From NCBI GenBank assembly GCA_036271375.1, contig DATBAT010000258.1, forward strand, positions 14,813-78,812: a stretch of 64,000 nt of DNA. The letters are read 5' to 3'. The notes below the pieces were generated by a model, which worked only from the letters and a program-made list of their open reading frames with translations, searched no databases and was not told where the DNA came from. Below, one piece after another: positions 19,517-20,926 of this stretch. The DNA comes from Terriglobales bacterium (GTDB lineage Bacteria; Acidobacteriota; Terriglobia; Terriglobales; Acidobacteriaceae). Made by a program: the position numbers and the translations under genes. How positions within the stretch are numbered: the stretch's first letter is position 1; the number at the start of each line of letters is the position of its first letter.

Positions 19517-20926
19517 ATGAGCCATCCATTCGATAGTCTGCCTTTGCTGAGTTCTCAGGAGGTGCTCCTGTGGAATTGGTACGCCCGCGCCGGCATCGGC
19601 GGGTCGGACTGGAAATCATGGGTCGCGGAGATTTTCGGCCGGTTGGTGGAGCGTCCCGGCGGTCCGCAACTATCGCTGGTTCAGAGTCACCTCGTCGACG
19701 CCAAATTCCAGGAGCAGACGCTGGCATTCGGCGCTAAGTGGGAGTTGTTCCTGGGGCGCGACGCGGAAAACGATATTCCCCTTGCCAACAAGGCGATTTC
19801 CAGCAGACACGCGCGAGTTTTTCTCAGCGAGGGCCGCATTTATCTCGAGGATCTAGGCGGCGGACTCGGTACCTATCTCTGGGAAAAGAAGATCCTGACA
19901 AAAGAGCGGCAGCGGCTAAGAAACGGAGATCAGTTCACCATTTTCCCTTACCGGTTTCGGGTGATGGTGAGCGAATCCTGGACTCCGGAGCCTGAGGTGT
20001 CGATCGGGGAATTCCGTTCCCTGCCCTCGACCCGCGCCGACTTCCTGCAGATGTCGCCCCCACTTTGGCGGACCTTTGTGGTGAACGCCCAACCGGATGG
20101 GCAGCGCGCTTTGCTGGAGGTGAGTCCCGCGCTGCTGAATGGCCTTCAGCAGCGTGTTTTTGGCCCATTGGGGGTTGGTGCGGTCAAAGAATCGGTCCCC
20201 GCAGACGACACTCTGCTGGGTTTTGTTCTTCTGGCGCTTCTTGAGCGCCTGAACCAACGGCTAAAGTTTCCCCTGCAATTCTCGTTCATGAAAAGCAATC
20301 GCAACAAAGGCGATGCCTGCCGGGGAATATCTCTCAGCTTTGCCGTCGGCGTTCCCGGCCTGTCGGGACACTGCCGGGTTTTCCTGCCGTTTGATTTTTT
20401 CTCCTCGCAAATGCTGACAATGCCCGCCGATTCCGGATTTCAAGGCCCAGCCGGTCTGGCGTGGAGCTTTCCGGTATCGGCCGGATTTGTAGATCTTTCG
20501 CGGGAAGAAATCTCGCAAATAGGCCTGGGGGACATCCTGGTTGCCGAACGCGGCACGGGCCTCCTACTTCCCAACGATTTCGGCAAGGGCTGGACCGGTT
20601 CACCGGAAGGAAGCAACTTCACCAGCCTCAAGGTCGATAAATATTTTGAGAGGACTACATCCGTGGAAGGTTTCGAGCAAGCGGCTGGCGATATGGCAAA
20701 ACCCGCTCTGGAAAAATTGCCTCTTCGCCTGCATGTGATTGTCGCAGAGAAGGAAATGACGTTCGCCGATATTCAATCCCTGGCCCCGGGGGCGATTGTC
20801 GAACTGGGCGCCAGCAAGATTTCTCCGGTCAAGTTGATGGTGAACGGCAAAGTCCTTGGCGAGGGCGAACTGGTGGACGTAGAGGGCAACCTCGCGGTCA
20901 AGATACTGCGCTGGAGAACCGCCTGA
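19517..20926 (+). CDS. sctQ: SctQ (C-terminal SpoA/FliN domain) with an N-terminal FHA domain
   Basis: FHA: 'WELFLGRDAENDIPLANKAISSRHARVFLSEGRIYLEDLGGGLGTYLWEKKI...GDQFTIFPYRFRV' (about nt 19712-19966). SpoA: 'LPLRLHVIVAEKEMTFADIQSLAPGAIVELGASKISPVKLMVNGKVLGEGELVDVEGNLAVKILRW'. Confidence 0.85.
   Translation: MSHPFDSLPLLSSQEVLLWNWYARAGIGGSDWKSWVAEIFGRLVERPGGPQLSLVQSHLVDAKFQEQTLAFGAKWELFLGRDAENDIPLANKAISSRHARVFLSEGRIYLEDLGGGLGTYLWEKKILTKERQRLRNGDQFTIFPYRFRVMVSESWTPEPEVSIGEFRSLPSTRADFLQMSPPLWRTFVVNAQPDGQRALLEVSPALLNGLQQRVFGPLGVGAVKESVPADDTLLGFVLLALLERLNQRLKFPLQFSFMKSNRNKGDACRGISLSFAVGVPGLSGHCRVFLPFDFFSSQMLTMPADSGFQGPAGLAWSFPVSAGFVDLSREEISQIGLGDILVAERGTGLLLPNDFGKGWTGSPEGSNFTSLKVDKYFERTTSVEGFEQAAGDMAKPALEKLPLRLHVIVAEKEMTFADIQSLAPGAIVELGASKISPVKLMVNGKVLGEGELVDVEGNLAVKILRWRTA
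20612..20640 (+). promoter_or_regulatory. Candidate internal sigma-28-type promoter inside sctQ: AGCAAC-N17-CGATAA
   Basis: AGCAAC at 20612-20617 and CGATAA at 20635-20640, upstream of the in-frame GTG 20663 (preceded by GAGAGGA) and ATG 20693 that precede the SpoA domain. Confidence 0.4.

Follow-up and report, generated by a model that had tools for sequence, protein, structure and literature searches.

In injectisomes, the type III secretion system (T3SS) membrane rings are joined to the cytoplasmic sorting platform by an FHA-fold domain of SctD, an eleven-stranded beta-sandwich, together with the adaptor protein SctK. Chlamydial CdsD, which has FHA domains, is a reported substrate of PknD, and in the flagellar motor the N terminus of FliM is the end that binds phosphorylated CheY (CheY-P). 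The FHA domain of PrgH binds OrgA through its loops and independently of phosphorylation, OrgA binds the N terminus of SpaO, and the N terminus of injectisome SctQ binds SctK (PMC9907115). Why an FHA fold sits at the interface between SctD and the platform, and whether it has ever read phosphorylation there, is a standing question. The gene analysed here encodes an FHA-SctQ fusion in a 64,000-nucleotide stretch (the window) of contig DATBAT010000258.1 from a Terriglobales (Acidobacteriota) bacterium. Both the fusion and its host T3SS, a FliO-containing lineage without SctD, SctK or secretin, appear to be undescribed.

An earlier note on this DNA had recognized an FHA domain in the open reading frame (ORF) at 19517-20926, placed it at nucleotides ~19712-19966, and described a SctQ-like middle region and a SpoA domain behind it. 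The peptide quoted for the FHA domain is found exactly, and its position falls inside the beta-sandwich (amino acids 46-156) predicted by AlphaFold2. Pfam assigns amino acids 79-142 to FHA (PF00498, E = 3.8e-14, 53.3 bits against a curated cutoff of 20.7) and amino acids 398-466 to FliMN_C (PF01052, E = 3.4e-15, 56.2 bits, cutoff 23.8), so that the SpoA domain also stands; the middle region is refined here into a FliM-middle-like domain followed by SPOA1 and SPOA2. The parts of the gene are as follows.

19517..20926, plus strand: FHA-SctQ gene, 469 amino acids, a cytoplasmic-ring/sorting-platform protein with an N-terminal FHA domain (ATG-to-stop ORF, Pfam FHA and FliMN_C, TIGR02551, homologues)
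19553..19645, plus strand: two-helix N-terminal segment, amino acids 13-43 (AlphaFold2 secondary structure; W19, N20, W21, W32 and W35 conserved)
19652..19984, plus strand: FHA beta-sandwich, amino acids 46-156 (Pfam, AlphaFold2, Foldseek; G80, R81, H98, G118 and T119 conserved)
20000..20416, plus strand: FliM-middle-like domain, amino acids 162-300 (Foldseek; PF02154 in relatives)
20459..20650, plus strand: SPOA1-like domain, amino acids 315-378 (AlphaFold2 strands, TIGR02551, Foldseek)
20708..20914, plus strand: SPOA2/FliMN_C domain, amino acids 398-466 (Pfam PF01052; PDB match to YscQ-C)

The AlphaFold2 model, built on an alignment of 79 homologues, has a mean predicted local distance difference test (pLDDT) score of 78.4 and a predicted template modelling (pTM) score of 0.50, which leaves the arrangement of the domains relative to one another uncertain. 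It consists of two N-terminal helices, the FHA beta-sandwich (pLDDT ~90), an alpha/beta domain at amino acids 162-300, and two small beta domains (amino acids 315-378 and 403-466) with a disordered linker between them. In Foldseek searches of the PDB, amino acids 160-469 resembled FliM of the Salmonella C-ring (8vib_M, E = 1.4e-8); the middle domain of Helicobacter pylori FliM (4gc8) was matched with a target-normalized TM-score (TMt) of 0.6, and a match to the FliM(SPOA)::FliN fusion 4yxc_B supports SPOA1. PF02154 did not match the window protein itself in Pfam and scores above its cutoff in the relatives P0267 and P0291 and in the SctQ of Archangium. The best PDB sequence match of SPOA2 is YscQ-C (3UEP, E = 7.5e-14). 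The best NCBIfam match is the SctQ model TIGR02551, in which amino acids 311-466 align to model positions 134-300 and thus span SPOA1 and SPOA2; its 78.6 bits are below the equivalog cutoff of 100.8, and the N-terminal half of the protein is unmatched. A SPOA1 domain is therefore predicted upstream of SPOA2, and the Pfam, fold and TIGR02551 matches together describe an FHA domain, a FliM-like middle domain and a double SPOA of the SctQ type.

The N-terminal sandwich most resembled canonical FHA domains, namely those of ArnA, Ki67, OdhI, GarA and DgcB, with TMt values of 0.7-0.84 to ArnA, Ki67, OdhI and DgcB, and no SctD cytoplasmic domain was present among its top 50 PDB matches in Foldseek. 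By sequence it is likewise nearer to true phosphothreonine readers (ArnA, OdhI/GarA, Rad53) than to FHA domains of the YscD/PrgH type, and the Pfam model for the SctD cytoplasmic domain gave a match below its cutoff. An N-terminal helix motif, LLSSQEVLLWNWY (19541-19594, amino acids 9-26; family consensus LPSxTRxEVxLWNWY), may faintly resemble the CheY-P-binding N terminus of FliM, LSQAEIDALL; no CheY gene is present in the T3SS cluster. An internal start producing a separate SctQ-C appears unlikely: Met393 precedes SPOA2, and it lacks both a Shine-Dalgarno sequence and conservation across homologues.

The fusion is shared by a whole family of proteins. A word-indexed search returned 86 clusters of homologues (clustered at 90% identity) that are 34-92% identical to the window protein, and all but two fragments contain both FHA and FliMN_C. 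An exhaustive hidden Markov model search of 1.84 billion representatives added depth, with 147 representatives at E <= 1e-30, ~65 of them full-length. Since more than 160 independent full-length sequences have the same architecture, it is not an assembly artefact. Divergent members retain the architecture, some with long N-terminal extensions, and the order of the flanking genes is kept even at 20-36% identity. Members with a named source come from Terriglobales, Bryobacteraceae, 'Acidobacteriota bacterium' and Candidatus Schekmanbacteria. An identical SctQ is encoded on a contig from a JGI soil metagenome. The earlier note knew of no FHA domain in SctQ and called for a survey of homologues. 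Fusions prove to be common, but they are confined to this uncharacterized T3SS lineage, and FHA is absent from characterized SctQ proteins in the literature searched and from the Myxo-type SctQ of Archangium. Neither an FHA-SctQ or FHA-FliM fusion nor a non-flagellar T3SS from Acidobacteriota is described in that literature, which includes few subscription journals, so that the negative is not proof of absence. Non-flagellar T3SSs were detected solely in Chlamydiae, Proteobacteria and Verrucomicrobia in one survey (Abby and Rocha 2012), and FliO in non-flagellar systems was assigned to Myxococcota and some Pseudomonadota only (2025 FliO survey).

Whether the FHA domain of SctQ reads phosphothreonine depends on a small number of pocket residues. 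The counts below are for 79 members of the clade of the window protein, with the register set by alignment to OdhI and ArnA.

Gly (Rad53 G69), window G80: Gly in 79 of 79
Arg (Rad53 R70), window R81: Arg in 76 of 79
His (Rad53 H88), window H98: His in 74 of 79
Phosphate-binding Ser (Rad53 S85), three residues before His, window S95: Ala in 59, Ser in 13, Gly in 4, Thr in 3
Canonical Asn (Rad53 N107) of the S-x-N-G-T loop, window L117 in the loop G-G-L-G-T: Leu in 74, Ile in 4, Met in 1, Asn in 0

The position equivalent to Thr106 is Arg, Lys or Gln in 56 of the 79. The apical loop motifs (GR, H, LGT and GDQF..FP) are among the best-conserved columns of the whole of SctQ, which argues for a maintained binding surface. 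Judging from these alignments, our reading is that the binding surface has been kept in this lineage while its chemistry would have shifted away from classical phosphothreonine recognition. Elsewhere in the family the canonical Asn persists. It is found in 15 of 162 full-length fusions in the profile alignment, and also in the P0267/P0278 group, where SANGT or SVNGT is gap-shifted in that alignment. The fusions that retain it (P0289, the P0317 cluster, P0291 from Schekmanbacteria, and P0267/P0278) are the most divergent, at 20-24% identity, and the pocket is fully canonical in some distant members. Four proteins of 590-913 amino acids (P0302, P0320, P0329 and P0331) have N-terminal extensions of ~70-450 amino acids and keep Ser, His and Asn, with Thr in place of Arg. 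A single family thus spans canonical to degenerate pockets, a natural series for a phosphothreonine reader becoming a constitutive docking module.

A second FHA protein is encoded at the other end of the cluster, and was correctly picked out in the earlier note:

31107..31628, plus strand: FHA-TM, 173 amino acids, tail-anchored, with a canonical FHA pocket, a Pro-rich linker and a C-terminal transmembrane helix (Pfam; 100 homologues)

Pfam identifies its FHA domain with E = 3.3e-13, together with a weak match to Yop-YscD_cpl. The pocket residues (GR, SREH and S-x-N-G-T) are invariant across the same lineages as the SctQ clade, at similar divergence. FHA-TM is the last gene of the operon in every relative locus seen, and the genes 3′ of it are unrelated in two relatives, CLC channels in one and lipopolysaccharide genes in the other. 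All 20 aligned members end 2-3 residues past the transmembrane helix and have no periplasmic ring-building domains. Loss of Asn in all 79 members of the SctQ clade and replacement of Ser mostly by Ala, while FHA-TM keeps every pocket residue, make the SctQ FHA domain unlikely to be a classical phosphothreonine reader; a phosphorylation gate, if there is one, would more plausibly operate through FHA-TM.

FHA-TM shares with SctD an N-terminal cytoplasmic FHA fold and a single transmembrane helix, and differs from it in having no periplasmic ring-building domain. As with the cytoplasmic domains of PrgH, YscD, MxiG and CdsD, an FHA fold would be located where the membrane ring meets the sorting platform; here, however, it is part of the platform protein rather than the ring protein, and its sequence is closer to canonical FHA domains than those of YscD and PrgH. 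An FHA domain that is part of the platform protein itself, where neither SctD nor SctK is detectable, provides a Rosetta-stone argument for direct contact between FHA and platform.

The gene cluster is a complete non-flagellar T3SS operon, whose gene order is shared with six loci (L001, L082, L084, L088, L089 and L090):

13952..31628, plus strand: T3SS operon region (Pfam; shared gene order)
20926..21360, plus strand: FliO-like gene (PF04347, E = 9.2e-11), whose start overlaps the SctQ stop (TGATG)
16115..16402, plus strand: conserved 95-amino-acid helical ORF between sctJ and sctL, in the fliG/sctK position

It begins with a sigma factor (13952), a protein of the needle/rod family (14718), SctJ (15291) and the 95-amino-acid ORF (16115), and continues with SctL (16395), SctN (17029), SctO (18363), SctP (18857), FHA-SctQ (19517) and FliO (20926). 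SctR, SctS, SctT and SctU follow, then small ORFs and LcrH-like TPR chaperones, SctV (26586), one minus-strand ORF, further small ORFs, a TPR protein and FHA-TM (31107). Across the cluster and the rest of the 64-kb window, neither Pfam nor NCBIfam detected SctC, SctD, SctK or a secretin, and domains of FliG, Mot, rod, hook or flagellin proteins were not detected by Pfam in the cluster.

Compared with SctQ of injectisomes (YscQ, SpaO, Spa33, HrcQ), the window protein has the same C-terminal SPOA1-SPOA2 tandem, its gene lies between sctP and the sctR side of the operon, and the partners SctL and SctN are present. It differs in the added N-terminal helices and FHA domain and in its sub-equivalog TIGR02551 score, and its locus differs in having no SctK gene, in the placement of FliO between sctQ and sctR, and in the absence of a conserved internal start for SctQ-C. 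With flagellar FliM it shares a FliM-like middle domain followed by SPOA and a regulatory or docking element at the N terminus; FliM, however, has a single SPOA domain where the window protein has two, its CheY-binding peptide is replaced here by an FHA domain, and the gene cluster here is non-flagellar, with no FliG detected and the 95-amino-acid ORF in the fliG position.

This small ORF is a possible bridging partner for the platform. The order sctJ-ORF-sctL in the window mirrors fliF-fliG-fliH of Escherichia coli, and the ORF is conserved in 11 loci. AlphaFold2 predicts a confident five-helix bundle (pLDDT 86.6), and Foldseek returned seven PDB matches, all with E > 1, of which five are FliG, the best being 5tdy_D (FliG_N with FliF_C). 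One family member has a weak match to MgtE_N, and no Pfam or NCBIfam model matched the ORF. Its identification as a cryptic SctK was rejected, as there is no SctK among the fold matches and no family-model match; identification as FliG is not demonstrable, with a negative hhalign comparison to E. coli FliG and fold matches at E > 1.

The closest outgroup we examined is the T3SS locus of Archangium (L002), which represents the needle-less and secretin-less T3SS* of Myxococcota, as does MXAN_2434-2464 of Myxococcus xanthus. The SctV proteins are 49% identical, the highest value among the loci fetched; an SctV-anchored genome scan, used as an outgroup panel only, listed no match above 49% identity and none identified as acidobacterial. 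Archangium encodes a FliM-like SctQ of 485 amino acids without FHA, FliO, a nearby Hanks kinase, and a 364-amino-acid FHA-FHA-linker-transmembrane protein that has no periplasmic domain. T3SS* and the window system are thus alike in a FliM-like SctQ of similar length, FliO in the operon, no secretin, an FHA membrane protein, a Hanks kinase nearby and LcrH-like chaperones. They differ in that the myxococcal SctQ has no FHA domain and the membrane protein has two, and in phylum.

The earlier note had further drawn attention to two adjacent Hanks-type kinase genes (31613-36526), which Pfam confirms along with FHA-TM, and there is a third kinase in the window:

31613..33760, minus strand: STK1, Hanks kinase with DUF8082, a second kinase-like region and a C-terminal transmembrane helix (amino acids 667-685); convergent with FHA-TM, whose 3′ end it overlaps
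34025..36526, plus strand: STK2, cytoplasmic Hanks kinase with a TPR/coiled-coil region and two DUF8082-like motifs (Pfam)
40753-43668, plus strand: Hanks kinase with one transmembrane helix and PD40 beta-propeller repeats

STK1 is tail-anchored, as is FHA-TM, and its catalytic loop reads HHD instead of HRD. A DUF8082-type motif, F-[VI]-G-P-[ML]-A-R ... D-L-x-x-L-Y ... R-x-x-F-L, is found once in STK1 and twice in STK2. In L088, whose SctQ is 47% identical to that of the window, orthologues of both kinases are found immediately upstream of the sigma gene, on the opposite flank of the cluster from their position here; its STK1 orthologue is 38% identical over 695 amino acids (E = 7e-132). STK2 orthologues in L088, L094 and L098 are 44-45% identical over 496-616 amino acids (45% over 496 in L088). 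Those of L094 and L098 also lie upstream of the sigma gene, where L089 and L122 have other Hanks kinases. By a strict criterion, seven kinase genes are present in 45 kb upstream of the sigma gene, in 5 of 11 independent loci, and the baseline in unrelated SpoA-containing metagenome loci is two in 322 kb (Poisson P = 2e-8, with a lower true significance since the baseline is drawn from other taxa and Acidobacteria are rich in kinases). No kinase is within view in about half of the relatives. With kinases in 5 of 11 loci and on either flank, the linkage to the T3SS is recurrent and survives rearrangement, and it is not universal.

On these associations the earlier note had based a proposal that assembly of the sorting platform is gated by phosphorylation, in the manner of PpkA, PppA and Fha1 of the Pseudomonas H1 type VI secretion system (H1-T6SS). 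The proposal is supported in part. The T3SS is linked to a canonical FHA-TM and to kinases, but the SctQ pocket is degenerate and kinases are not constant neighbours. A Hanks kinase and a canonical FHA protein are genetically linked to a secretion machine, as in the T6SS, but the analogy is incomplete because no PP2C phosphatase was found in the 64-kb window, and kinase linkage applies to about half of the loci. Here, moreover, the canonical reader is a tail-anchored mini-protein and the FHA domain of the structural subunit is the degenerate one. The cluster is a specific candidate for a type III machine under the control of Ser/Thr kinases, and it comes from soil bacteria that are abundant but whose T3SSs have hardly been studied.

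The explanation we favour, tentatively and at somewhat less than an even chance, is that the FHA domain of SctQ serves mainly as a docking module, with phosphorylation input, if any, arriving through FHA-TM and the flanking kinases. It builds on the architecture of the fusion, its conservation throughout the family, the residues substituted in the pocket, the surrounding operon and the enrichment of kinases, and from there it extends to binding partners, phospho-independence and a direction of evolution. FHA-SctQ would be the ring or pod subunit of a non-flagellar T3SS in Terriglobales that is Myxo-like and contains FliO; FHA and two helices would have been added to the subunit at the N terminus, the membrane-facing end of SctQ. 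Because the apical loops and Arg are conserved and the Ser and Asn that coordinate phosphothreonine are replaced by Ala and Leu, the domain may be a constitutive docking module that is phospho-independent or phospho-relaxed, paralleled by the binding of PrgH FHA to OrgA without phosphorylation (PMC9907115). It could tether SctQ pods to a membrane-proximal partner and so stand in for the SctD(FHA)-SctK bridge; candidate partners are FHA-TM, the tail-anchored STK1, or the SctJ tail with the 95-amino-acid ORF. Phosphorylation, if it occurs, would be written by the flanking Hanks kinases and read by FHA-TM. The fully canonical pocket kept by distant fusions suggests that the ancestral fusion was a true phosphothreonine reader and that this lineage has shifted to fixed binding.

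Several points weigh against a docking role. No binding partner of the SctQ FHA domain has been identified, and the model is uncertain about how the domains are arranged. The 95-amino-acid ORF could be the real bridge, in which case FHA would be a purely regulatory add-on, and genes for SctD, SctK or a secretin could lie in another part of the genome. To judge from the pocket residues, the Arg, Lys or Gln at the Thr106-equivalent position could provide a new phosphate contact, and the window protein, which retains Ser95 and Arg81, may be capable of weak or non-canonical phosphopeptide binding.

An alternative that is unlikely and still deserves serious weight is that the SctQ FHA domain is a working phosphothreonine reader, and that the kinases phosphorylate a T3SS component or themselves and thereby gate platform assembly as PpkA, PppA and Fha1 do. 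A Pfam FHA score far above cutoff, a sequence closest to ArnA, OdhI/GarA and Rad53, a nearly invariant Arg81 and the Ser95 of the window protein all fit such a reader, as do the fully canonical pockets of distant fusions, the STK1 and STK2 orthologues that flank the cluster in several relatives, and the enrichment of kinases. The absence of Asn from all 79 clade members and the loss of Ser from 75% of them speak against it, whereas FHA-TM retains every residue. Kinases are out of view in about half of the relatives, the window has no PP2C phosphatase, and no conserved Thr-containing target was identified.

A broader reading, which we consider improbable and put forward as speculation, is that these clusters from Acidobacteriota and Ca. 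Schekmanbacteria represent an undescribed non-flagellar T3SS lineage that has kept an intermediate between the C-ring of flagella and the sorting platform of injectisomes. Assembly or activation of its ring would originally have been controlled by Ser/Thr phosphorylation, and the gradient of pockets would record how FHA domains of T3SSs, including that of SctD, turned into phospho-independent structural modules. On this account FHA would occupy the N-terminal signal-input site of a FliM-type protein, the ORF in the fliG/sctK position would be a one-domain remnant, FliO would be a further intermediate feature, and a tail-anchored canonical FHA protein together with a tail-anchored Hanks kinase would replace SctD. 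The family offers a natural series in which to trace how FHA domains evolved from readers to scaffolds where the T3SS membrane and platform meet.

More doubtful again is a relocated SctD domain, in which an ancestral tandem-FHA SctD of the Myxo/Chlamydia type would have split, one FHA domain passing to SctQ and the other becoming FHA-TM, so that contact between the two would rebuild the SctD-platform interface. The Archangium locus has the appropriate starting material, since its FHA-FHA-linker-transmembrane protein exists alongside an FHA-less FliM-like SctQ and FliO. The first FHA domain of that protein (FHA1) already has Tyr at the Asn position and ranks 9 of 168 against the SctQ-FHA profile, level with the best FHA domains among 1.8 billion proteins. 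In addition, the third-best PDB FHA match is 3GQS, which we take to be Chlamydia CT664/CdsD. However, the SctQ-FHA and FHA-TM profiles both favour Archangium FHA1 and show no one-to-one correspondence, FHA domains are short with weak phylogenetic signal, and the best FHA-only matches (P0319 and P0322) are on contigs of less than 2 kb with uninformative contexts.

Finally, a flagellar switch protein (FliM/FliN) or an annotation or assembly artefact is rejected as highly improbable: NCBI automatically annotates homologues as 'FliM/FliN family flagellar motor switch protein', and the FliM-like middle domain and adjoining FliO agree with that name, but the cluster has SctJ instead of full-length FliF, a protein resembling YscO, another of the T3SS needle/rod family, and TPR chaperones of the LcrH type, with none of the flagellar domains sought, SPOA2 is nearest to YscQ-C and TIGR02551 is the best NCBIfam match, and more than 160 independent sequences and the overlap of the SctQ stop with the next start argue against an artefact.

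Several other features of these loci may be recorded. The needle/rod-family protein (14718-15263, plus strand), present in 18 loci, has 181 amino acids, about twice the usual length of SctF or SctI, and matches weakly to PF09392 (needle) and PF17001 (inner rod). The SctR/FliP homologue (21227-22222, plus strand) has a Pro/Ala-rich insertion of ~55 amino acids, such that its residues 80-326 align to the 191-position Pfam FliP profile. The minus-strand ORF of 191 amino acids at 29681-30256 is probably not a real gene: relatives have two genes on the plus strand there (90 and 115 amino acids), whose equivalents in the window are at 29625-29897 and 29945-30292. They precede a TPR chaperone, as small T3SS substrates typically do. 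In L091, sctU is followed on the opposite strand (15817-18398) by a partner-switching module composed of a dCache-HAMP-SpoIIE phosphatase, an RsbW-like kinase and a STAS protein; the FHA-SctQ pocket of this locus is fully canonical, and no Hanks kinase is in view.

Just upstream of the secretin-less cluster is a gene for a CsgG-like lipoprotein with a weak FlgT_C match (10663-11634, minus strand). It could encode a component of the outer membrane, or its position next to the cluster could be due to chance; in L100 (1-3717), three tandem CsgG-like copies, the outermost cut by the end of the locus, lie upstream of the sigma gene. Downstream of the T3SS and kinase genes, the minus strand at 45380-60656 contains a large polysaccharide/O-antigen cluster with glycosyltransferases, Wzy, Wzz, a Wza-like export protein and a sugar transferase.

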